A stretch of 52,357 bases of DNA from NCBI GenBank assembly GCA_039630055.1, contig JBCNVN010000005.1, forward strand, positions 1-52,357, given 5' to 3'. The stretch is from Candidatus Caldarchaeales archaeon (GTDB lineage: Archaea; Thermoproteota; Nitrososphaeria_A; Caldarchaeales; Wolframiiraptoraceae). Positions 10,772 to 22,943 of the stretch are shown here, piece by piece (position 1 is the stretch's first letter; each line of letters begins with the position of its first letter). A program made the translations under genes and the position numbers. The notes beneath the pieces are model-generated. The model worked only from the letters and a program-made list of their open reading frames with translations, did no database searches and was not told the DNA's origin.

Positions 10772-11548
10772 TTAGTCTTTCTTGATTACTCTACCAGTGG
10801 GATCGATCTCGCCGAGGATTATTCTCGTACTAGATATAGTCTTACCATCCTCCGCGACGACTAGTGGACATACTATAACCTCTAGATTTTTCAAGCCCTT
10901 CCTAACCCTAACCTCGTTTATCTCTATAGCTCTATAATATGTCATGGGGCTTACTACGAGAAGCTCTAACTCTGGATCTTCTACGGTTGGTCCATAAGGA
11001 TCATTCAATAAAACTATCTCGCATCTTTCCAACCAGCCATTGGATGAGAGCATAGATTTAAGATTTCTAACTCTCTCATCAAAACTTTTAGCCATGTATC
11101 TCTTCCCCAGAGTCTTCACGAACTCATCTCCAGTAACCCCGATCAGCACTTTCTCACTATTTTTTAGAGCTGTATAGATCAGAGTTAAATGTCCATAGTG
11201 TGGCTCATTGAAAGTGCCGCCGACCGCCGCTTTCTTGTATCTTGGTTTAGGAAAACTTTTCTTAATCTCTTCTTCTACATCTTCTCTCCACATCCTAAGC
11301 TCATCAAGGATCACTATGGATTCTCCAAGCGGCATTCTCAGCAAGACCGATAACTCTCCAAAAGATACTCCAGGATTCTCTACTAGCACCACATCTCTAA
11401 CATATGATTTATGTTCATTGTATAGTGGCATGCTCTTGGCAAGCTCAACCACTATATCCCATAGAGGATGGTCTTTATACTCTCTAGGAACACTCTTCAA
11501 TCTGGCGAGGGGGCTATACGTTTCCATCTTTATATGATTAATCAACAA
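10772..11548 (-). CDS. coaD: Archaeal phosphopantetheine adenylyltransferase with about 100-aa N-terminal extension
   Basis: AVGGTF..HYGH, DPYGP, LVVS and ISSTRI motifs. Confidence 0.88.
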   Translation of the reverse strand: MLINHIKMETYSPLARLKSVPREYKDHPLWDIVVELAKSMPLYNEHKSYVRDVVLVENPGVSFGELSVLLRMPLGESIVILDELRMWREDVEEEIKKSFPKPRYKKAAVGGTFNEPHYGHLTLIYTALKNSEKVLIGVTGDEFVKTLGKRYMAKSFDERVRNLKSMLSSNGWLERCEIVLLNDPYGPTVEDPELELLVVSPMTYYRAIEINEVRVRKGLKNLEVIVCPLVVAEDGKTISSTRIILGEIDPTGRVIKKD

Positions 11549-11720: not shown

Positions 11721-11733
11721 AAAGCTTTATATA
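11721..11733 (+). promoter_or_regulatory. BRE-TATA promoter of the 11.76-18.45 kb operon (probably leaderless)
   Basis: AAAGC-TTTATATA ending about 25 nt before the ATG at 11759. Confidence 0.6.
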
Positions 11734-11758: not shown

Positions 11759-12304
11759 ATGATTATGGGCTTGGCAGAAATCGTACCCCCTCAACCTCCT
11801 CCATGGCTCGACCCAACGGTATACCTCTCAAACCTTGGCTGGGTATTATTGAGAACCTTCCTGACCTTTCTCCTAATATTCTTTATCGGTCTAGGCTCTC
11901 TACGTCTACTCGACCATATTACTCCAGGGATTAGCGAGGTCTCGAAGATAAGAGGCAACCCAATAGCGGTAGGAATGTTCGCTGCAGGCTTCTTCATCTA
12001 TCTCTCCTTCGCCTATATCGCTTCTATGATCTCTCCTCTACCTATCGGCACTACCACTGGCATCGTAGCAGGAGTAAGCCCACTAGTATTGATAGCGTAT
12101 AAACTGCTAACACTATTCTTCGGGATACTCATCTCACTTCTCTTCGCATTCGTCTACTATAGGATCCTCGCAAAACTAGAACCATATGGAGTAGATTTAG
12201 ATGATGTTGATAAGGAGCCGATTGCAGTCGGCATCTATTTGATGGGTTACCTAATATTCTTAGGCGCAATAGTCTACGTTTCACTGCTTCTACCTGTAGT
12301 GTGA
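11759..12304 (+). CDS. DUF350-like membrane protein (two repeats)
   Basis: Internal repeat KIRGNPIAVG / DVDKEPIAVG, each between TM helices. Matches my recollection of the DUF350 (YjfL) GN.AVG pattern. Confidence 0.65.
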   Translation: MIMGLAEIVPPQPPPWLDPTVYLSNLGWVLLRTFLTFLLIFFIGLGSLRLLDHITPGISEVSKIRGNPIAVGMFAAGFFIYLSFAYIASMISPLPIGTTTGIVAGVSPLVLIAYKLLTLFFGILISLLFAFVYYRILAKLEPYGVDLDDVDKEPIAVGIYLMGYLIFLGAIVYVSLLLPVV

Positions 12305-12310
12305 TTTTAT

Positions 12311-13195
12311 ATGTCTAAGAGGAATAGAATTTGGTACGAAAGCTTTACGACAGTGTTTATCAAACCGGAGCCAATAATATCACCAACTGAAGAAGTCTAT
12401 CGAGAGAGTGAGATACGTTCTCTAAAGAGGTCTGCATCAATATTCATAGGTAGTGGATTAATAGTCGTGGTTAGCTTACTCATCATCTTCTTCCCATTTT
12501 TAATGAATATACTTGGAGCTTTAGCTTTCTCAATAATACCCGTAGCTACACTTCTCGCATGGGTTATTAAAACCGATAAGTATGAACCTGAACCAAAATC
12601 TCTGATACTCGCTGTAATAGGTATAGGTGGATGCATCGCTGCGATCTTCTCAGTTATTAATTTTCCAAGCGGGTTAACATACTACTTAGCTAAGATAGCT
12701 TTGATAGAGGTACTTTTCTTCTTGATATTGTTTGGACTTGACTCAAATAGAGTTACGGGAAGAGAGTTTAATGATCATCTAGACGGAGCTGTCTACGGGC
12801 TATCATTAGGGCTAGGATACATACTATACGACAACTTTATCAAAGTATACATGATGCCACCTATTATCAATCCATTAATGCTAATCTTACTAGCAGTTGA
12901 AGATATATTCATCTCGGTCTTCCCTGCTCTCACGGGGTGGTGGATAGGTTACGTTAAAGCAAAGTATGCATCAGTAAGGTTCATAGACCTTCTCGCAGGA
13001 TTTATTCCAATCATCTTGATCCGAGTTCTTTACGAAGCTTTTACGATCGTTATCTCCTCAATTAATCTACCACTTAGATTAGCCGCCGTAATACTAGTAG
13101 GCGTGATTATTTTATCTATTCTTCTGAGGAGGGTTAGATGGGCTTTAGAAGATGAGAGATTATGGAGATACCACATCGGGAGGGCTCCAGTATAG
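12311..13195 (+). CDS. PrsW-family intramembrane protease homolog, catalytic motifs degenerate
   Basis: DKYEPEP and DGAVYGLSLGLG family motifs are present; EExxK, FxxxEN and the conserved His are not. Confidence 0.72.
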   Translation: MSKRNRIWYESFTTVFIKPEPIISPTEEVYRESEIRSLKRSASIFIGSGLIVVVSLLIIFFPFLMNILGALAFSIIPVATLLAWVIKTDKYEPEPKSLILAVIGIGGCIAAIFSVINFPSGLTYYLAKIALIEVLFFLILFGLDSNRVTGREFNDHLDGAVYGLSLGLGYILYDNFIKVYMMPPIINPLMLILLAVEDIFISVFPALTGWWIGYVKAKYASVRFIDLLAGFIPIILIRVLYEAFTIVISSINLPLRLAAVILVGVIILSILLRRVRWALEDERLWRYHIGRAPV

Positions 13196-13207
13196 AGGGG
13201 GTAGTGG

Positions 13208-14275
13208 ATGAAGGTATCTATGAACTCATTATCCTTAACCTCAATATCAACGATATTCTTGATATTGTCGATTTTACTTCCAATTACTTTAGCTGGAACT
13301 CCACCTTACATTAAAGCTGGATTAAAATTCGTATACCAGATTTATGATGGAAAGACCCAGCAACCTGAAAACGTCTTCCACAACTATATCATTGAATTTG
13401 CTACTACTCAAAGAATACTTATCCGGATAGAGTCAGATGTAGTTAAATCTCAATCTATTGAAGCTGATGGAGATGGAAACATACTTGGAGGGGGAGGTCG
13501 TATCGATCTATGGATACCCATCGATCTTCAAGTTGGTTCTAAAATAAAATTAATGGAATATGATGCGATCGTAGCGATGAAAAACTATGACTTAGATAAG
13601 AGTGGAAGATTAACGTTCACAGTTATTTCGAGTACAGACCAGAAGATAATGTGGCTCTATGTTGATGGAGGAAGCATACCTGAAGCCAATCAGCTACTAG
13701 GACTTCTCTTCGGAGTGGTCTTTACAAGTGCGAATAAATTCATGGTCTTCACCAAAGTAGAACAAGCAGAAGTTAAAACGGTTGTTACAACAAAAACTAC
13801 CCAGACAATAACATCTAAAACATTAACTACACCCTTAAAGACGACAGTAACAGCTAGAAGTACCGTAACAGTAGGAGGAGAGACCACGTTAACAACATAT
13901 ATTACAACTACCGTTATTCAAACTACTGTAACACAAGTTTCCACGATCACTACCCATAGCTTAGAGACACATGCAACAACTATTACTACTGTAAGTACTG
14001 TTACACCAGATACTCAGATTACAGAAGCTGGCTCCTCATTTATAATCCCTCTACCTGTAGCTGTTGTAGTAGCATTGGTAATAGTTGGAGGAGGGTTCTT
14101 CTATGTAAGAAGTTGGAAGAAGCCACTTCCACCAAAATATCCATACCCATCATATCCAATTCCTCCACCACTCCCCGCACATCCACCACAGATGGTTGGA
14201 TACTGTCCAGCATGTAGATATCCAATATATAGTGGAGATGTATTCTGTAGGAGGTGTGGATACCGTGTATCATAA
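13208..14275 (+). CDS. Type I membrane protein: signal peptide, beta-rich ectodomain, Thr-rich stalk, TM, Pro-rich tail, zinc ribbon
   Basis: Thr-rich residues about 190-275, TM ending in RSWKK, C-terminal CPAC...CRRC. Confidence 0.82.
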   Translation: MKVSMNSLSLTSISTIFLILSILLPITLAGTPPYIKAGLKFVYQIYDGKTQQPENVFHNYIIEFATTQRILIRIESDVVKSQSIEADGDGNILGGGGRIDLWIPIDLQVGSKIKLMEYDAIVAMKNYDLDKSGRLTFTVISSTDQKIMWLYVDGGSIPEANQLLGLLFGVVFTSANKFMVFTKVEQAEVKTVVTTKTTQTITSKTLTTPLKTTVTARSTVTVGGETTLTTYITTTVIQTTVTQVSTITTHSLETHATTITTVSTVTPDTQITEAGSSFIIPLPVAVVVALVIVGGGFFYVRSWKKPLPPKYPYPSYPIPPPLPAHPPQMVGYCPACRYPIYSGDVFCRRCGYRVS

Positions 14276-15890
14276 GATTGCTACAATAATTTTCATCTTT
14301 CTTTTAACTCTATCGAGTTTATCAATTCTTTCAGTGGGCGATGCTCAAGAAGATGAAATAAAGATCGAGTGGAATAGACCGATACATTTTCTTGGCCCCC
14401 AGAGGACCCTAGTACTTATTGTTGAGTTTTCAGATGTTAGATTTAGATCTTCAATACAGAAAGTTGAGGAGATAGTGGATATAGTTAACAGATTCATCAA
14501 GTCTAGCTCATATGGGAAGACGTGGTTAGACTACTACATATACCCCAAAATCATAACCTTGCCGAAGAACATGGCCTACTATGGTGGACCAAGTCCTGGA
14601 GCACAGAGAGGAGATGATAATGCGAGATCTTTAGAGTTCAAGTATCTGGCGATAAAGTTCTTTAAAGAAAGATCTGGGAAAGACATAACCGAGTTCAAGC
14701 ACGTTATAATAGTTCATGCAGGTGGAGATGAAGCAGCAAGTGGTTCACCTAACGATATATGGAGCCACTGTATGATGTCTAAACCTATATATCTTCTTGG
14801 AGAGGAATATGGACTCGACGCAATCTACGAAATGCTTATGAGTCAAGGCCCTGAATACCAGATGGTCGCAGATATTTTAATGCATAAGAAGCCTGATGGA
14901 GAATGGCATCTAATCGCTGGGGTAGAGACTGTGGCCGAGGAAGATATGCCCTCGGTCATGATGCACGAGTTCACCCACAGTATGTGGATATACGACCACT
15001 ACGTTTATTCTAAGGATGGCTACAGTGCGGGGTCTGAAGTAGGAGTATGGACGAACATGGATGCGGGACCAATGCTAGACCCTCCTGTCGACATCGATGG
15101 ATGGTCAAAGTATCTTCTAGGATGGGTGGAGGCTGTCGAAGTTAAAGAGGATGGAGAGTACATAATTCATACCTTAGATAAACCTGATGAACCACATGGG
15201 ATAATAATCCCCATAAATGAAGAAGAATACTACTTCATACATGCTAGAAGACCAGTAGGTCAAGATGCTGCTCTACCAGGTCCAGGAGTATTATTATTCA
15301 AGATCAATAAGTATAGGTCTCGGAATATTGAGGGAGAACCATATATGGTCAGTCTATCTGATGCGAATCCTGATACGCCTCCTGAGTGTAGAGACCTCGA
15401 TAAGAGAAAGGTTAGGCTCTGCGAGACACTTGATGCACCCTACTATGAAGATGAACAATATAGAGGACTGTGGGGGCGGTTTGCTATAAACCTCTTAACC
15501 GAAGAAGTAACAACAGAAGAAGGTTTCTATATAAAGGTTACAGAGTTCGATGAATCAGAAGGTTTTGCTAAAGTGTACATAAGCCTCCAAGGAAAACCGG
15601 CTGATGAAGTTGTCGAAGATGCTGAGAAGGATGAGGAGGTTACAACCGTAACAAAGACTATTACAGGAACATATACTGAAACAATATACACAACCATAAC
15701 TACTTTTGGAACGGTTACGAAGAGTATTGTGGTAACCGTTACCGTTGCTCCTCCACCACGGATGGAAAACTGGACAGACTACCTCTCAATCATCATAATA
15801 TTTGCAGCCGTGGTAGCCGTCTTCGCAATAATAATCTTGAGGAAGAGGGCACCTCCACCGCCTCCACCTCCACAATATCCACCATGGTAG
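14265..15890 (+). CDS. Membrane-anchored M6-family (immune inhibitor A-like) zinc metalloprotease
   Basis: IIVHAGGDEA, DIWSH, HEFTH...DHY and KYLLGW motifs; Thr stalk, TM, poly-Pro tail. Start placed at GTG 14265, just before the signal peptide (ORF track gives 14196). Confidence 0.88.
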   Translation: MYHKIATIIFIFLLTLSSLSILSVGDAQEDEIKIEWNRPIHFLGPQRTLVLIVEFSDVRFRSSIQKVEEIVDIVNRFIKSSSYGKTWLDYYIYPKIITLPKNMAYYGGPSPGAQRGDDNARSLEFKYLAIKFFKERSGKDITEFKHVIIVHAGGDEAASGSPNDIWSHCMMSKPIYLLGEEYGLDAIYEMLMSQGPEYQMVADILMHKKPDGEWHLIAGVETVAEEDMPSVMMHEFTHSMWIYDHYVYSKDGYSAGSEVGVWTNMDAGPMLDPPVDIDGWSKYLLGWVEAVEVKEDGEYIIHTLDKPDEPHGIIIPINEEEYYFIHARRPVGQDAALPGPGVLLFKINKYRSRNIEGEPYMVSLSDANPDTPPECRDLDKRKVRLCETLDAPYYEDEQYRGLWGRFAINLLTEEVTTEEGFYIKVTEFDESEGFAKVYISLQGKPADEVVEDAEKDEEVTTVTKTITGTYTETIYTTITTFGTVTKSIVVTVTVAPPPRMENWTDYLSIIIIFAAVVAVFAIIILRKRAPPPPPPPQYPPW

Positions 15891-15899
15891 AATCTTGAA

Positions 15900-17285
15900 A
15901 TGACTATCGTAAAAAAGACTTGGATCATCTCGATTATCACGCTAACAGTATTCGTATATCTCCAGCCAAGCATGGTGAGCAGTTTAGAGCAAGATTCTCT
16001 AGAATTATCTGTAGAAAATTATCTCAAGAATATGCTCGAATACGTTAAATCTAATATAGACAAAGATGGGGTTGTATTGAGATATGGTGAGAGGCATATC
16101 ATAAGGGCCACCGCTAGGCTAGGTCTTCTAGCAGGATACATACATCTAGGACTCGGAGATAGTGAATCACTAAGCATCTTCAATGAAATTGCTAGAGCCC
16201 TATACCTACGTCTAAATAGTGGAGAGATAGGATTAGAGGAAATAAGTGAGGCTCTCTTGACACATCAAGCTCTGCTAGAATTTGCCGTACTACATTATGG
16301 GTTAACCGGGTCTGAAGAGTCTAGAGAAATAATGATGAGGTCATGTGAATCTCTCATGGAAGAGTTTGGATGGACCCCGACCACATCATGCTCTACGTAT
16401 CTATTATACTCTGCACATGTCTCCTTTATGGCGGGTGGAAGACCGGAGAAGCAAGATATAGAGATAGCTTTAAAAGAGATATCGGAAAAATATGTAGAGT
16501 TCATAAATTATACTTCTAGACATGGGGGAAACCTTGCAGTAGGTCTCAACATTCTATCGATAGCTATCAAAGTAGCTCAATCTTCTAAGACCCAGCTACC
16601 GTTAGAGATACCTGCAATGTGGGAGGTACATCTCAACTATAGTCTGAAATATGTTAGGGATTCAGGTGAAGAGTTAGATTATGAAAATTATGAGCTTTTC
16701 TTGGATAGTTTCCTCTCAGCTCTTGAAACAGGTTACGCTACACCTCTTAGAGAAGATGTTTTAAGAGAATCTGAAAAGATTACAGTAGAGATTATGGAAG
16801 ACTGGATGTCGGGAGGTAGATTGATACTTTTAGAGAAAGACTCTTTCAACTATCTACTATATGATCCCTCTCTAGATTTTAAACAGCTTATAGAGATCTA
16901 TAGTAAGAATCCAAGGATAAGAGTATACGACCTTAACCTACCGATCCTTCTTCAAAGATTATCAAAGATTGGTGAAATCGAGAAGATTGATGAGTTTCGG
17001 GAAGGATCAACTTTGGCCGTCAAGATCGTATCATCAAGTCAACCATACTTCAAGTTGGCTAGAGATGAGATATCTCCACATCAAGAGATAATTGATAGGA
17101 TAATCTCTACACGTTTTCTCTCTACATGGTATATTATTGAGAAGGCTGTAATGAGGCCTCCAGAAGATATAGAATTAGCCTATACTGGGCCGTCATACTA
17201 TACGTTGATATCATCCTCAACTCTACTGATTATCCTCTTAATCCTATACAGACTCGGTATACTGATGAAGGTTGAAAGAGGATGA
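15900..17285 (+). CDS. Hypothetical secreted, C-terminally anchored protein (largely helical, acidic)
   Basis: N-terminal signal peptide and C-terminal TM; 9 nt after the preceding stop. Confidence 0.75.
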   Translation: MTIVKKTWIISIITLTVFVYLQPSMVSSLEQDSLELSVENYLKNMLEYVKSNIDKDGVVLRYGERHIIRATARLGLLAGYIHLGLGDSESLSIFNEIARALYLRLNSGEIGLEEISEALLTHQALLEFAVLHYGLTGSEESREIMMRSCESLMEEFGWTPTTSCSTYLLYSAHVSFMAGGRPEKQDIEIALKEISEKYVEFINYTSRHGGNLAVGLNILSIAIKVAQSSKTQLPLEIPAMWEVHLNYSLKYVRDSGEELDYENYELFLDSFLSALETGYATPLREDVLRESEKITVEIMEDWMSGGRLILLEKDSFNYLLYDPSLDFKQLIEIYSKNPRIRVYDLNLPILLQRLSKIGEIEKIDEFREGSTLAVKIVSSSQPYFKLARDEISPHQEIIDRIISTRFLSTWYIIEKAVMRPPEDIELAYTGPSYYTLISSSTLLIILLILYRLGILMKVERG

Positions 17286-18454
17286 GGTCGGAGCCATCTA
17301 CTAAGACAGGATTAACCTTCTTATTGATAGGTGTAACAGTAACATTATCGGGAATAGTTTTAGAACGGGTTCAGCTAGATATGTTGAGGCTCCAAGAACA
17401 GTATCTGGCACTCTCAACAACACTCTATGTCGATATCGGTCCAGGTTTGACTGCAGCAGGTTTAGCATGGATAGTTTCAAGCATTAATCCTATCAGGAAA
17501 TCCTATCTTATACCGATATCCATCGGGATCGTTCTGCCTACACTCGTATTATCCCTTGGGTCAATAATCTTAGAGATAGGCTACTTGGGAGCCATAATAT
17601 GGCATTTAACTTTATTCACTATACCTCCCGCCTTCATCGCTTCCAGTGTTGTAGCTGGGGTCATAGTGGAAAGGCATAGGAGAAGGGATAAGGTTCCAGA
17701 TATCAAGGTAAGGTTTGAAAAACATTTATTGTATCTGATCGCTATAGCTCTATTCTTAATATTCTCGAGAGAACCGTTAGCTCTATTGAGATTAGTTATC
17801 CTGGCTTTGACCACATGGATACTATGGCATTTCATCAGTCCGAGACTTGCATGCTATCTAATAGCGAGAAAAATGAGAAGAGGGATGAGAAGATACGAGT
17901 TGGTTTCTCATAAGAGAAATATAGAAGAGTTGACCTTGATTAACGTATTCTCAAAGTCTTATTATCCTCTTGCTTTTGGTCTAGGCCTCTCTCTTACACT
18001 ATTCAATATAGTAGAGATATTCCCAATCCCTGAAGGTCTTGTGCCATCTGAACCGATGTCAAAGGTAGTTCAACTAGTCATGTTCTCTATTCTAGCGATC
18101 GTTGTAGGCTCAGCATATGTAGGTCCCGTAGTTTGGCTCTATAGAGATTCGGGAATAAGGGTTAAGGATAATGTTTCAATGGTTGTCGAGGAACCAAAGA
18201 TACATTCTTTCGCAAATAATCTCGTAGAGGTTTATGGTTTCATTCAAGCTCCTATCAGCTTCACCATAGCGGCAACTGGAGGAGACTATCTATATGCGAT
18301 CACATTGCTAGCACTTCTAATAGTAACCATACTGACGGTCTCCCTCTCGGTAGTGATCTTGTATGTAAGATTTTCCTCAGAGAGCAATCTACGCTATCTT
18401 ATCAATAGGTTGGTTAAAGAAGGATACATCCAGCCTTCAACCGGAGTTCACTAG
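17282..18454 (+). CDS. Hypothetical polytopic membrane protein (about 9-10 TM)
   Basis: ATGA overlap with the upstream gene; many hydrophobic segments with basic loops. Confidence 0.75.
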   Translation: MRSEPSTKTGLTFLLIGVTVTLSGIVLERVQLDMLRLQEQYLALSTTLYVDIGPGLTAAGLAWIVSSINPIRKSYLIPISIGIVLPTLVLSLGSIILEIGYLGAIIWHLTLFTIPPAFIASSVVAGVIVERHRRRDKVPDIKVRFEKHLLYLIAIALFLIFSREPLALLRLVILALTTWILWHFISPRLACYLIARKMRRGMRRYELVSHKRNIEELTLINVFSKSYYPLAFGLGLSLTLFNIVEIFPIPEGLVPSEPMSKVVQLVMFSILAIVVGSAYVGPVVWLYRDSGIRVKDNVSMVVEEPKIHSFANNLVEVYGFIQAPISFTIAATGGDYLYAITLLALLIVTILTVSLSVVILYVRFSSESNLRYLINRLVKEGYIQPSTGVH

Positions 18455-18545
18455 TATATTTTTATAATCTTTCTAGATGTTCCATACATTGATCGGAAGA
18501 TTTATTAGAGACTGGAGACAGTAAAAACTAGATAGGTGGTTAAAT

Positions 18546-18956
18546 TTGTCTATGATACCTAGGGGTAAGTTGATTGGAATGCAGGTATACAATCCGAATG
18601 GAACATTTATTGGAACTGTGCAAGATATAGCTTTACCTATCGGAGGAGGAGAGATGGGGATCCAGATATTGACGAGAGCTCAGACAACCCATACCATCGA
18701 GTGGAGCAAGATAGCGGCTGTAGGCGATATTATAATCTTAAAAGAAAATATTGAGCTACCTGTATCTGCTCCTGCAACAGCATCTATCGTATCACCAACA
18801 ATGACGCCAGTCAAGGAAGAGAAGAGAGGACTGGAAGTGATTACCAGTGTATTTAGGAGGAGAGAGAAGCCGGCTTGCCCAACATGTGGGAAACCCTTAA
18901 CATATATTGAACAGTATAAGAGATGGTACTGTTATAACTGTAGTCGCTATGTCTAG
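18546..18956 (+). CDS. PRC-barrel protein with C-terminal zinc ribbon
   Basis: LIGMQVYNPNGTFIGTVQDI...IEWSKIAAVGDIIIL (PRC barrel) and CPTCGKPLTYIEQYKRWYCYNC. GGTGG SD upstream. Confidence 0.85.
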   Translation: MSMIPRGKLIGMQVYNPNGTFIGTVQDIALPIGGGEMGIQILTRAQTTHTIEWSKIAAVGDIIILKENIELPVSAPATASIVSPTMTPVKEEKRGLEVITSVFRRREKPACPTCGKPLTYIEQYKRWYCYNCSRYV

Positions 18957-19360
18957 AATCATTAGGTACGACCAAGTATAGGATATCTAGAAAGTTTCAA
19001 ACCATTATACTTATCCTCGAGTCCTAATGTAAGGATAGAGGTTACGGGCCACACCCCAGGATCAATCCCTTACCATCATCCTAGAATCTTGAGAAGGCTA
19101 ATATTTCTAGACCGCTGGGCCACGAATATTAGGATGTGGCCCATTTTCAAACCTCCAAAATCATTCTCTAATTCCAGTTTACTTCTCGTTTCAAATCTAG
19201 TCTTTACCTCTCCAATAGCATTCACTGTCCACCGATAATACTACGCATAGTATTTTGAGATCGGCTGAGACCGCATCATATCTGAGAGGATTAGAGGGAT
19301 CCAAAAAGATTTTCAGATCGTCGAAAAATCTTTAACCAAGCTAATAGGATATCTCTGTAG

Positions 19361-19416
19361 ATGATGTGAGCGGGTAAATCGGACTTTCAAGGGATGAAGA
19401 ATGATACCCGGTCTGA
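19361..19416 (+). ncRNA. Box C/D sRNA candidate
   Basis: C-like ATGATGT (19361-67), 12-nt guide, D' CGGA (19380-83), C' ATGAAGA (19394-400), 12-nt guide, D CTGA (19413-16). AAAAATC-TTTAA promoter-like element about 25-30 nt upstream. Confidence 0.65.
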
Positions 19417-19449
19417 TCCATATAAACCAAAAACTCTTCTATACTGTCA

Positions 19450-20403
19450 TCATAATGGTATAATCACATCCCTCAGATCATTCCCCAAGAATACTCTAAA
19501 GCTCCGGCCACTCTCCAATATTACTTCTTCAACCCTTCCCTCCACCATCACCCTATCCCCAATCTCTGCAATCTCTGCGAACCTACTCCTCATAGACATG
19601 GCCGAGGAAACCTTCCAAGCAACTTCATCACCATACAATACTTTTAGAACTTCTAGATCATACATGTTTGGAGTTGTCTTGCTGAATCTTGAACCCGTCA
19701 CCTTACAGACTAGACCCGACCTACCAACCTCTACAACCTTCTGAGATATGTCTTCCCAATACTCGCTGGGTAATGGTACGATCTTCAATGTGTACAATCT
19801 ATCTCTAAAGGTTCCAGTTAACAGTTTTCTAGACTCGATCTCCAGCCACCTCTCTGGAGATAAAGATGAATCCCTTCTAGTTTCGATTATCCAGTCATAC
19901 GTTCTCGCCGGTTTTACAATCCCTCTAATCCTCAGCTCTCTCAACTCATCAATGAGGCTTCTACCATCCTCCAACCCATATACCACTAGGTCTATATCAG
20001 AACTTGGGCTATCTAATCCTAGAAGTATCGATCCAGATACTCCAACCTCTATGCCTATCGATGACTCTATCATCTTCTTGAAGTCTAGAGCGTCTCTACC
20101 AGCTTCAGTAGATGCAGTATAGAACTCTAGAGGATCATATATTCTCTCAACATCTTCTACAGGTACAACTGGTGTAACCTGACCGGTAAAATCAAGCCTC
20201 TCCAAATACTTTGGCTTACTCAATTCTAGATATCTCATAGCCTCTCTAAAACTTCTAATTCTAAGATATCCTCCACTAGATTTTATGTAGACTGGGAGCG
20301 CTATTATCTTATCTCGGGGATGTAGAACACCTTTGACAGCATATATATCTCCATCTACCCTAATATAAGATCCTTCTAGGATCCTATGCCTTCCCGAGCC
20401 CAT
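19450..20403 (-). CDS. Pol-beta-superfamily nucleotidyltransferase (COG1665-like), paralog 1
   Basis: GVSGSILLG...SDIDLVVYG; N-terminal VKGVLHP; OB-like C-terminus. Confidence 0.82.
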   Translation of the reverse strand: MGSGRHRILEGSYIRVDGDIYAVKGVLHPRDKIIALPVYIKSSGGYLRIRSFREAMRYLELSKPKYLERLDFTGQVTPVVPVEDVERIYDPLEFYTASTEAGRDALDFKKMIESSIGIEVGVSGSILLGLDSPSSDIDLVVYGLEDGRSLIDELRELRIRGIVKPARTYDWIIETRRDSSLSPERWLEIESRKLLTGTFRDRLYTLKIVPLPSEYWEDISQKVVEVGRSGLVCKVTGSRFSKTTPNMYDLEVLKVLYGDEVAWKVSSAMSMRSRFAEIAEIGDRVMVEGRVEEVILESGRSFRVFLGNDLRDVIIPL

Positions 20404-20417
20404 TAAACATACTGCCT

Positions 20418-22943
20418 CTAAGCCTTCTTACTCCTCCTCTTAAACACTCTGCTAACAATCACAACGATCGCTACTATAGTTATTATCGGGATCAAATTCG
20501 ATGTGATAGTAAATATGTCGGAGAGATTTATGACCACCCCAGCTATATCGATATACTCTAATCTAACTTCATTCAGTCCGCCGGGCCCCGTCCTTATAGA
20601 GCTCGACAACCCTCTACTCTTCACCTCTACATCGTAAAAAGGTAGCATTATCACATCTTTAAAGAATGCTATACCATTCATATCCGTCTTCTGCTTGGAT
20701 AAAGGTACTCCAAGATAGCTTAGAGAGACGTCTGCTCCCTTTACTGGGTTCTCAAAAAAGTCTACCACCTTGACCGTTAAATTAGTTCTCAAAAGAGTAT
20801 AGTTGAATGTTTGTCCTTTAAAATCTACCTCCATGCTTGATGCAGCGATCCTAGTATACGGATAGAAGATAGTTATCGAGTATTTTGAGAAGAATGATTT
20901 CTTGAATAAGGCTACCCCATTGGAGTCTGTGAAGACTCTTCTTCTCTCTCCACCTTGTTCTACTGCTTCAACCTCTGCATCCTCAACCGGTTTACCATCA
21001 ATCCACTTAACCTCTATCCTCATATCTGCAACTGGAAGCTTTATCTCAGTCCTGCCGTAGAGTTCCTCAGTCCTCAAAGTTTCATTGAATAGTTCTCTAC
21101 CTGTTAAGAAGTCTCTTATAACTATCTTGCATAATCCTTCTGGAACATAATCTATCTTTATCAAATTTGTCGCTCTCTCCTCGAATATTCTACCTGCAGG
21201 GTCTATGAGAGAGTAGTTCACCGTATATTCTTCACCATCAAAGTCGATCAACCTGATGTCCAGATCGTAGACATCCGATCTTAAGACATCTACTATAGAG
21301 CCCTCAACAACTATCTCGCCTCTATATATCTCTGTTCGAAGCCACTCTACCGAGACATCATATTCATCTCTAGGCACACCTGAGAAGATCACAACCCCTA
21401 TTTCATCTGTCTCGGAATATATAGGACCAAACCTTACAATAGCATCTTCTATAGGTTTCCCAGTAGCGCTCACGATCATAAGCTTTACAGAATGTATCGG
21501 TAACTGCATTAGGCTTCTCTCGCCAGGTTTGAAAACTCCACTATGCTCGACGATGTTCTTGAAGACCTTCGAGTAGTTGACAGCTCTAACACTATACTCT
21601 AGTATTGGCAACTGGGTAATGTTGAGCAGTCCGCTTCTAGAGTATATGTTTCCAAAGCTTGTCTCAAGGTTGGGCCCCATGACAGTGAAGTTTGCTCCAA
21701 CCATGTTTCCACCAGTATCGATTGCTTGAACAATCAGATCTCCTACGGGAAGCTTCAAGACGTGCTCCACCGCCGGCTTCGTTATCCAAGGATATATTGT
21801 TGGATGGTATCCGGTCCAGAGCCACCCATCAAATATCTTGAGACCCTTCCAGAAGACCTGGGCTGTATGATTCCCTTGAGGTACCATTAGATAGGTAGTC
21901 TCTCCACCTTTAGCGATCTTTTCAAACCCGTCAAACGCTACTAGTGCTCCATTCAATGGTCTTCCATAAATATCTCTAAGCTTGATCTTCAAGGTAAATA
22001 AACCAGTCTTAAGATTTTTCGATCTAGCGAGATCAAGTGCCCAATGCTGTTCAAAATGTATGAATGGATACATCTGTCTATAGCTACTATTCCAGTATAC
22101 TTCCACCTCATATTTATCATCGTAGAGTCTATGTATTTTTATCGTCCCATTCTCAGGGGTAACATACACTCTTCTCTCATAGTAGTACATCAATCTAGTT
22201 ATAACTACTTTGGCATAGGGTATTGGATTCAACCCATCAAAATCTGTAATGGTTAGGTTGAAGGTTCTATAAGGCTGTATCTCTACATGGTTCTCTGCTA
22301 TCGGATATTCTTCAAGAGTATACTCAAGCCATCCAGGGAAGATCAATCTAACATCTATTGATGGTTTAGTCTTTATCTCTTCACTGGGAATGTCTTCCGG
22401 AATATATACTTTGAAGCTTAAGATCGTGCTAGATCTAGGGTCTCGACCATCAAGTATATAGTTCATCGGATTGAAAGCTTCAAGAGTCCTCCTAGAACTA
22501 TTCCAGAAGATCATGCCTCTACCTATTTCCTTGAATGGAAACCATAATCCTACGGAGACTATATCAGTCTTTTCTCCAACACATGAATCTATCACCGTTA
22601 GACTATAGTCTCCATATATCTCTCCATCTCTACCCCATAGATTCCTAACCCTCAAATCATATCTTCTAATCCATTCATCTCTCTTCATCTCTTCAGCTCT
22701 CTTGATAATCTCCTCGATAAAACTCTCGTTAACTGAGTTGAACTCTACGAGGTAGCTCCTCCTATCACTACAGTCTAAGTTGGTAATATTGACATATACG
22801 CTGCCCCACTCTCCCATGTAGAGCCAGCTTGGAAGTATAACTATCCTCAAACTCCACATGGGTTGGGCTGAGCCCTCAAAAACCATATTAGAGGCTAAGA
22901 CTAATAGTATAAGCAGAGTGGCTGAGAATATCTTAACCTTCAA
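20418..22943 (-). CDS. Large surface protein with tandem carboxypeptidase-regulatory-like beta-sandwich repeats
   Basis: Signal peptide; repeated D..G.P...A.V...TD..G...F units; C-terminal TM and FKRRSKKA. Confidence 0.8.
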   Translation of the reverse strand: MKVKIFSATLLILLVLASNMVFEGSAQPMWSLRIVILPSWLYMGEWGSVYVNITNLDCSDRRSYLVEFNSVNESFIEEIIKRAEEMKRDEWIRRYDLRVRNLWGRDGEIYGDYSLTVIDSCVGEKTDIVSVGLWFPFKEIGRGMIFWNSSRRTLEAFNPMNYILDGRDPRSSTILSFKVYIPEDIPSEEIKTKPSIDVRLIFPGWLEYTLEEYPIAENHVEIQPYRTFNLTITDFDGLNPIPYAKVVITRLMYYYERRVYVTPENGTIKIHRLYDDKYEVEVYWNSSYRQMYPFIHFEQHWALDLARSKNLKTGLFTLKIKLRDIYGRPLNGALVAFDGFEKIAKGGETTYLMVPQGNHTAQVFWKGLKIFDGWLWTGYHPTIYPWITKPAVEHVLKLPVGDLIVQAIDTGGNMVGANFTVMGPNLETSFGNIYSRSGLLNITQLPILEYSVRAVNYSKVFKNIVEHSGVFKPGERSLMQLPIHSVKLMIVSATGKPIEDAIVRFGPIYSETDEIGVVIFSGVPRDEYDVSVEWLRTEIYRGEIVVEGSIVDVLRSDVYDLDIRLIDFDGEEYTVNYSLIDPAGRIFEERATNLIKIDYVPEGLCKIVIRDFLTGRELFNETLRTEELYGRTEIKLPVADMRIEVKWIDGKPVEDAEVEAVEQGGERRRVFTDSNGVALFKKSFFSKYSITIFYPYTRIAASSMEVDFKGQTFNYTLLRTNLTVKVVDFFENPVKGADVSLSYLGVPLSKQKTDMNGIAFFKDVIMLPFYDVEVKSRGLSSSIRTGPGGLNEVRLEYIDIAGVVINLSDIFTITSNLIPIITIVAIVVIVSRVFKRRSKKA

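Follow-up and report, generated by a model that had tools for sequence, protein, structure and literature searches.

In a Candidatus (Ca.) Caldarchaeales archaeon (assembly GCA_039630055.1), seven co-oriented genes, here called A to G, lie on the + strand between positions 11759 and 18956 of contig JBCNVN010000005.1 (Table 1), within the 52,357-nt stretch of DNA that we analyzed as a whole (the window). In the open reading frame (ORF) listing of the window, the gaps are 6 nt (A-B), 12 nt (B-C), 9 nt (D-E), and 91 nt (F-G), while C overlaps D and an ATGA overlap of 4 nt joins E and F; this is exactly the layout given in an earlier note on this DNA. Hydropathy analysis revealed transmembrane (TM) segments in every protein from A to F but not in G, in agreement with that note's description of the first six proteins as membrane-bound. 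Its domain and topology calls for all seven proteins were also reproduced, with the PrsW and M6 assignments falling below curated cut-offs. The evidence leaves us evenly poised on the proposal that these genes form a modular system for proteolysis at the cell surface of Caldarchaeales; our firmest new point is the pairing of a DUF350 protein with an anchored protease.

Table 1. Genes of the cluster and candidate signals around them, in window coordinates.
Feature	Position	Strand	Description
TATA-box-like element	11726..11733	+	exact TTTATATA, 26 nt 5' of the ATG of A
A	11759..12304	+	181 aa, DUF350 protein, 4 TM
B	12311..13195	+	294 aa, polytopic divergent PrsW-like membrane protein
C	13208..14275	+	355 aa, type I membrane protein, stalk and zinc (Zn) ribbon
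D	14196..15890	+	564 aa from TTG, M6-like zinc metalloprotease ectodomain, anchored
E	15900..17285	+	461 aa, membrane-anchored extracellular alpha/alpha-toroid protein
F	17282..18454	+	390 aa, polytopic membrane protein, rare unnamed family
F-G spacer	18455..18545	+	91 nt; T-run, TTTTTATA, GGTGG
G	18546..18956	+	136 aa, soluble PRC-barrel protein, C-terminal Zn ribbon

Pairing of a DUF350 gene with the gene for an anchored protease

We first consider A and D. A matched the DUF350 profile PF03994 at 36.8 bits (cut-off 26, E 4.8e-9) over positions 6-132 of 133, and its hydropathy peaks (residues ~29-47, 69-87, 109-127, and 163-181) correspond to the four TM helices expected for DUF350. An alignment of A orthologs (n = 16) contained 36 invariant columns and a conserved N-terminal PPxPPxWxDP motif, which the positive-inside rule places probably outside the cell. 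D aligned to positions 3-284 of the 286 in TIGR03296 (E 2.8e-21). Its score of 76.7 bits and the 88.8-106 bits of its orthologs are below the cut-off of 110.8, and PF05547 was matched only at E 0.021. H257, E258, H261, and D267, which make up an HExxH motif and an Asp six residues past its second His, were invariant in 9/9 aligned orthologs; this Asp is presumably the third zinc ligand of the M6 site. A Thr-rich stalk links the ectodomain to a C-terminal TM helix, beyond which lies a cytoplasmic poly-Pro tail (P555-P559, PPPPP) that is invariant in the ortholog alignment. From these features, D is apparently a zinc protease that is active and that its stalk holds on the outer side of the membrane. 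A search of PDB sequences with the D profile gave 0 hits, indicating that no solved structure is detectable by sequence. The longest D frame begins at a TTG and overlaps C by 80 nt, with an alternative ATG at 14238; because the overlap encodes the Zn ribbon of C, conservation of the first residues leaves the start of D undecided.

Outside the Caldarchaeales, D orthologs at ~40% identity were present in Bathyarchaeia, where A was immediately upstream of D in 6/6 genome loci and the flanks contained no B, C, E, F, or G gene. No partner genes accompanied M6 proteins at 56 distant bacterial loci. A metagenome scan with the A alignment recovered 80 loci. At 46 of these, A was at least 48% identical; at 41 of the 46, A was recognisable and the contig extended 300 nt or more beyond it. 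At 40 of the 41, the gene next after A was D (30 loci) or B, the latter with C-D behind it as far as the contig ran (10 loci). The exception (L111) was a decayed remnant in which a truncated A lies beside a truncated F. Three metagenome contigs (L106-L108) were fully colinear from A to G, and one (L109) had the order A-D-E-F-G, with B and C missing.

The other 34 metagenome loci (L152-L185) encoded a DUF350 protein ~35% identical to A, and none carried D. Instead, a gene for a transglutaminase-like protein of ~275 aa directly followed the distant DUF350 gene in all 30 loci with room for it. In this partner, a signal peptide precedes the transglutaminase-like core, and the C-terminal TM helix has an Arg-rich end. 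PF01841 was matched by each of the seven partners scanned, six of them above the cut-off. The partner family comprises 1794 clusters, with the named members that we looked up mostly labelled Ca. Aerophobetes bacterium; it was not found in 41 Caldarchaeales or 5 Bathyarchaeia genomes. Considered with the A-D loci, these distant loci indicate by gene context that the DUF350 lineage of A is coupled to predicted extracellular proteases that have a C-terminal anchor and belong to two unrelated folds. DUF350 is widespread and has no assigned function; its tight adjacency to anchored proteases provides a concrete hypothesis for experiments to test. Complex prediction with A and residues 47-564 of D gave an ipSAE of 0.00 in two runs, a result that weighs neither way on binding.

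Gene order and modules in Caldarchaeales

We profiled the seven proteins across 41 genomes, consisting of the window's genome, whose closest named relative is Ca. Geocrenenecus huangii (Caldarchaeales, "Aigarchaeota"), and 40 relatives. As these genomes are kin, the counts overstate independence. Genus names for the Caldarchaeales genomes are those in a part of PMC9246946. D orthologs were present in 15 genomes, in one of which (G016) D is broken. A was present in 14 genomes, each of which also has D. B and C occurred in an identical set of 10 genomes, all with A and D, and were always situated between them. E and F likewise shared an identical set of 12 genomes, all with A and D, and were never found without them. 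G was more widespread, occurring in 22 genomes: the 12 with E and F and a further 10 in which A, D, E, and F are all missing. Presence varied within genera, as D was found in 5/7 members of the window's genus (the window's own genome excluded) and in 1/5 of another.

Gene order was also variable. The order A-B-C-D-E-F-G was colinear in three genomes of the same genus. In G031, A-B-C-D is convergent with E-F and G lies beside E, while in G033, A-B-C-D is convergent with F-E. In two Benthortus-like genomes, A lies opposite an E-F-G-D operon and B and C are missing; D in these genomes ends in PPPPPPP and a C-type Zn ribbon. In three Caldarchaeum genomes, A-B-C-D stands alone, with E-F-G on another contig or ~81 kb off; in the single-contig genome G030, this distance is measured round the circle. 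Overall, G adjoins E-F in 10 of the 12 genomes, in three relative orientations. Where G was apart from E-F, or in a genome without E-F, no neighbor was common to different genera.

Several copies were altered. G003 has the order A-B'-D, with B truncated and C lost (L014 8877-9335), D of G016 is decayed into three pieces (L026 8912-10749), and E of G006 is split (L016 7664-8773). In the Caldarchaeum genome G027, two tandem D paralogs follow A-B-C (L022 8566-11913).

Thus, the cluster consists of three modules: a core of A and D, an insert of B and C, and E and F, usually with G. The cluster described in the earlier note recurs in other genomes and in metagenome contigs, which makes it more than a chance neighborhood, and its orthologs are not scattered in sister genomes. 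The genes are nevertheless not one obligate seven-gene unit, since A-D, B-C, and E-F(-G) are separable. We considered whether the genes have no common function, such that inherited synteny and compaction in one genus give the appearance of an operon. Although modules lie apart in some lineages and G is alone in 10 genomes, linkage has been kept through at least four arrangements (the colinear one, A-D and E-F convergent, A opposite E-F-G-D, and A-D-E-F-G lacking B-C). Moreover, presence and absence are identical for B and C and for E and F, genomes with E and F are nested within those with A and D, and the A-D adjacency extends to a second class, the Bathyarchaeia. We consider it very improbable that the genes have no common function.

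The patchy distribution, together with the decayed copies in G016, G003, G006, and L111, reveals that the system is dispensable and has been lost repeatedly. Dispensability is compatible with a nutritional cassette, in which surface-tethered D would digest environmental protein for a peptide-fermenting archaeon, while A, B, C, E, and F would anchor, mature, or protect D or handle its products, with no cytoplasmic signal. The patchy presence (15/41 genomes), the pseudogenised copies (the broken D of G016, the truncated B and lost C of G003, and the L111 remnant), the tandem duplication of D in G027, the occurrence of A-D alone in Bathyarchaeia, and a stalk suited to reach past a surface layer all fit this explanation. 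However, there are no peptide transporter genes in the conserved neighborhood, and feeding would require neither the invariant poly-Pro tail of D nor the conserved Zn-ribbon tails. The strict co-occurrence of B and C, inserted inside the A-D pair, is also not explained. We regard a nutritional role as unlikely, if a serious competitor to the modular proteolysis system proposed here.

Transcription signals were examined in the window. The TATA-box-like element upstream of A fits with A being a leaderless first gene. The motif class to which it belongs was not enriched in the window (103 matches versus 130 expected). Because TATA-like matches were not above chance, the motif scan neither demonstrated nor excluded internal promoters. 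A T-run and TTTTTATA occur directly after the F stop codon, and GGTGG lies 6 nt 5' of the TTG of G. The F-G spacer may therefore contain a terminator, and G is predicted to have, probably, its own promoter and leader. Three DNA sequencing runs of one hot-spring study contain the stretch, and no RNA run is listed as containing it.

The B-C and E-F-G proteins and the surroundings of the cluster

B matched the PrsW model NF033739 (E 1.8e-5) over positions 4-185 of 210, with a score of 24.5 bits that is far below the cut-off of 225. The window's own B had no PF13367 match at E <= 0.1. Among B orthologs, 5/12 matched PF13367 weakly (best E 3.2e-4), and in the genome search B of G027 scored 21.5 bits against a cut-off of 23.5. 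D89, Y91, E92, E94, E133, N154-D155-H156, E197, K216, and K218 were invariant in the orthologs, with conserved motifs DxYEPEPK and NDHxDG. The catalytic residues of PrsW are a conserved Glu pair and His residues in TM helices; the invariant Glu and His residues of B are E92, E94, E133, H156, and E197. Across the 41 genomes, a single canonical PF13367 protein was found (L197 1363-2034 in G035; 38.8 bits), and it carries an EEFAK motif, which B lacks. Comparison of the B profile with this protein using hhalign gave a probability of 0.3, i.e., no profile match, and a search of PDB sequences with the B profile gave 0 hits. By these sequence comparisons, B appears to be a remote PrsW relative.

C starts with a signal peptide and a conserved ectodomain of ~160 aa. 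A Thr-rich stalk connects the ectodomain to a TM helix, and a PLPPxYPYP segment and a C-terminal CPAC...CRRC Zn ribbon (PF13240, E 1.7e-4) follow on the cytoplasmic side; the PLPPxYPYP segment is invariant in the orthologs. Signalling by regulated intramembrane proteolysis (RIP) calls for a single-pass substrate from which cleavage frees an effector domain in the cytoplasm. C spans the membrane once, and its cytoplasmic part is a conserved tail with a Pro-rich segment and the Zn ribbon. In an AlphaFold2 (AF2) model, the ectodomain (block pLDDT 84-92) is an open beta-barrel of the lipid-binding half-barrel type. Its best structural match was LmcA (7n3v; Z 12.0, rmsd 2.9, 134 aligned), followed by BDI_3050 (Z 9.2) and, at Z 4-7, LolA, RseB/MucB, ependymin, and lipovitellin-type half-barrels. 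The resemblance to RseB/MucB is weak (Z 4-6), and we do not rely on it. An abstract line on LmcA, a putative lipid binder in lipoglycan biosynthesis, proposes that it binds lipid. The C family is tiny, with 22 clusters in a profile search (all at E <= 1e-122), and the three clusters with an organism name are all from Ca. Caldarchaeum. Using hhalign, we detected no relation between the C profile and the N-terminal domain of protein P0046.

The AF2 model of E (pLDDT 86.7, pTM 0.81) is an alpha/alpha toroid. While a Foldseek check of E suggested by the earlier note gave no match at E <= 0.001, VIA-align identified LanC-like cyclase domains as the closest structural matches (CuvL, Z 20.2; MadC, 19.2; GCR2, 18.2; NisC, 17.1), with GH47 mannosidases and sugar epimerases next (Z 14-16). 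The E alignment contained 17 invariant and 10 nearly invariant columns. None of these is Cys or His, and E thus has no conserved counterpart of the Cys/Cys/His set that we take to be the zinc ligands of LanC. E matched no sequence family in Pfam and NCBIfam scans.

The folds of C and E raise the possibility that the cluster functions in biogenesis and maintenance of the surface layer or its glycoproteins, with E-F handling a glycan or lipid-linked precursor, C binding lipid, and D and B trimming or releasing Thr-rich stalked surface proteins. LmcA as the best match of C, the Thr-rich stalks on both C and D, and the structural neighbors of E that follow the LanC-like proteins (GH47, GH76, GH88, and sugar epimerases, Z 12-16) are in keeping with this idea. 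However, fold matches of this kind are generic for alpha/alpha toroids, E has no assignable conserved acidic pair and no CAZy-type family match by sequence, and a core system should not be missing from 26/41 related genomes. We consider a role in surface-layer biogenesis and maintenance improbable, though it is still a competitor to be weighed.

F had no Pfam or NCBIfam match and belongs to a family with 45 representatives among 1.84 billion proteins. Our own predicted model had a pTM of 0.35, and an ESM Atlas lookup gave no usable lead. Examination of 30 distant representatives of the family revealed that 16 carry a fused Zn ribbon, either N- or C-terminal (E <= 0.01; 11 of the 16 at E < 1e-4). 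Two Bathyarchaeota proteins, P0078 and P0083, combine an E-like toroid and an F-like polytopic domain in one polypeptide. In P0078 (730 aa, N-terminally incomplete), residues 172-426 of E align at 28% identity (E 1e-28) and, after a TM stretch, residues 4-387 of F align at 30% (E 2e-52). This natural fusion argues that E and F may work as one unit. A metagenome scan with P0078 gave no confirmed relative.

G matched PF05239 over residues 6-67 (E 3.9e-6; 27.2 bits, cut-off 21.2), with a Zn-ribbon match at its C-terminus. Both domains are strongly conserved, as an alignment of eight orthologs contained 48 invariant columns that include all four Cys. Within this system, a Zn ribbon is carried by C and G and, in a single lineage, by D as well; from this distribution, it appears to serve the membrane proteins repeatedly as a cytoplasmic handle.

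We also examined the surroundings of the cluster. A phosphopantetheine adenylyltransferase gene (window 10772-11548, - strand) is divergent from A and adjoins it; in two Bathyarchaeia loci, such a gene lies ~4.5-5 kb upstream of A (L044 4211-4762, L045 3773-4288). Downstream of G, ~490 nt (18957-19449) lack any convincing ORF, and Rfam gave no match to them at its gathering thresholds. They are followed by a gene for a 317-aa protein with a nucleotidyltransferase domain (19450-20403, - strand). Proteins of this kind are a recurring neighbor of the cluster, with two tandem homologs just upstream of A in two Caldarchaeum loci (L017 4831-6775, L036 5637-7581). Next is an 841-aa surface protein (20418-22943, - strand) with a signal peptide, a C-terminal TM anchor, and CarboxypepD_reg-like and Ig-like (Big_1, macroglobulin-like) domain hits. 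Elsewhere in the window, we rejected a 95-nt tRNA-Pyl (CTA) called by ARAGORN at 1934-2028. Rfam scores this region as tRNA at 52 bits, and by eye it is an intron-containing tRNA, with the intron after the anticodon loop and the anticodon probably CCT (Arg); the call is thus no evidence of pyrrolysine use. PADLOC gave 0 hits across 10 proteins and thus no support for a known defence system.

Proposed mechanism and comparison with known systems

A model that could accommodate these data has an ancient core, in which the four-TM DUF350 protein A would be the dedicated membrane partner (a regulator, sensor, or docking site) of the zinc metalloprotease D, itself held outside the membrane on its Thr-rich stalk by the C-terminal anchor. 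In Caldarchaeales, a second pair, B-C, would have been inserted between A and D. C would expose an ectodomain of a type that binds lipids or hydrophobic ligands outside and its Pro-rich Zn-ribbon tail inside, and by analogy with RIP by PrsW of RsiW, B and C may be a protease and its substrate or sensor. The third module, E-F(-G), co-occurs with the core and is often joined to its apparent transcription unit. It would supply an extracellular toroid (E), a polytopic membrane partner (F), and a cytoplasmic PRC-barrel/Zn-ribbon adaptor (G). With G docking inside, E-F may provide a further membrane function that requires A-D, a dependence that we propose because E and F were never found without A and D in the 41 genomes.

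Several observations weigh against this model. The modules are separable, as in the three Caldarchaeum genomes where A-B-C-D and E-F-G are apart, and 10 genomes have G but not A, D, E, or F. A search for F in five Bathyarchaeia genomes with A-D found none save one weak partial hit. Patchy presence in 15/41 genomes and decayed copies would equally suit a dispensable accessory function such as feeding. Because its scores are far below PrsW cut-offs and it does not match canonical PrsW, B may not be a protease. Lastly, Pfam and NCBIfam scans recognised no effector family in the cytoplasmic tail of C, which carries a generic Zn ribbon.

The earlier note had proposed that the proteins form a membrane complex linking proteolysis outside the cell to a response in the cytoplasm, which is a possibility. 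We are doubtful of a more ambitious reading in two joined parts. First, DUF350 proteins would be dedicated partners, as sensors or regulators, of anchored proteases in both Archaea and Bacteria, the protease being M6-like in Caldarchaeales and Bathyarchaeia and transglutaminase-like in the Aerophobetes-labelled clade. Second, Caldarchaeales would possess a RIP pathway in which cleavage of C by B, D, or both frees the Pro-rich Zn-ribbon tail to cytoplasmic readers such as G. If the signalling interpretation is true, a TACK archaeon would here offer a candidate case of proteolytic signalling across the membrane. Strict pairing with B makes C a candidate substrate or sensor for an archaeal PrsW-like protein, and the E-F family and the PRC/Zn-ribbon protein gain a functional context.

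The earlier note did not recognise this combination as a described system, and titles and the starts of abstracts of the papers found by our full-text searches contain no description of it; supplementary gene-neighborhood tables of work on PRC-barrel proteins or PSP could mention parts. We take the cluster to be a real, modular envelope-protease system, apparently undescribed, and its parts can be compared with known systems. C resembles LmcA/LolA-type half-barrels at the level of fold, with 8-12% sequence identity, but is matched by no sequence family. Similarly, E shares the fold of LanC-like cyclases and six-hairpin glycosidase-type toroids at 8-12% identity and differs from the cyclases in having no invariant Cys or His for the LanC zinc.

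Like CdpB1-3 and CdvA, G contains a PRC barrel, which in G scores above the Pfam cut-off. PRC-barrel proteins are proposed, in the main text of a preprint, to be recruiters or adaptors in archaeal division (10.1101/2023.03.28.534520). G differs from CdpB-type adaptors in its highly conserved C-terminal Zn ribbon, and that main text contains neither 'zinc' nor 'Zn-ribbon'. In addition, the only neighbor of G conserved across genera is E-F, rather than division or translation genes.

For B and C, the closest parallel is the sigma-W pathway of Bacillus subtilis (PrsW, M82). According to passages in PMC9263693, PrsW is the site-1 protease of Bacillus RsiW signalling, and the function of archaeal PrsW-like proteins is unknown. 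As in that system, a polytopic protein (B) is encoded beside a single-pass protein that would bind zinc in the cytoplasm (C), and proteolysis would occur at the outer face of the membrane. In contrast, B is only remotely related to PrsW (24.5 bits versus 225, with no PF13367 hit for the window's own protein), and the type I protein C carries a generic Zn ribbon of 25 aa in place of an anti-sigma domain. Further, archaea do not have sigma factors, no site-2 protease is linked, and the unit described here adds an extracellular metalloprotease and a DUF350 protein.

D resembles M6 proteases of the immune inhibitor A type, as it aligns to nearly the whole TIGR03296 domain and keeps HExxH and the downstream Asp. 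It differs in scoring below the curated cut-off and in its anchor, which is a TM helix with a poly-Pro tail or, in Bathyarchaeia, a CFI-box-CTERM. D is also always paired with a DUF350 gene, compared with 0/56 of the distant bacterial M6 loci. Finally, A belongs to the same Pfam family, with four TM helices, as the DUF350/YjfL proteins of PspA-linked envelope-stress operons, which part of one study describes as an uncharacterised membrane component of these operons (PMC11237479). Unlike those operons, no locus examined here contains a PspA/Snf7 gene, and the partner of the DUF350 protein is instead a predicted anchored extracellular protease, either M6-like or transglutaminase-like.

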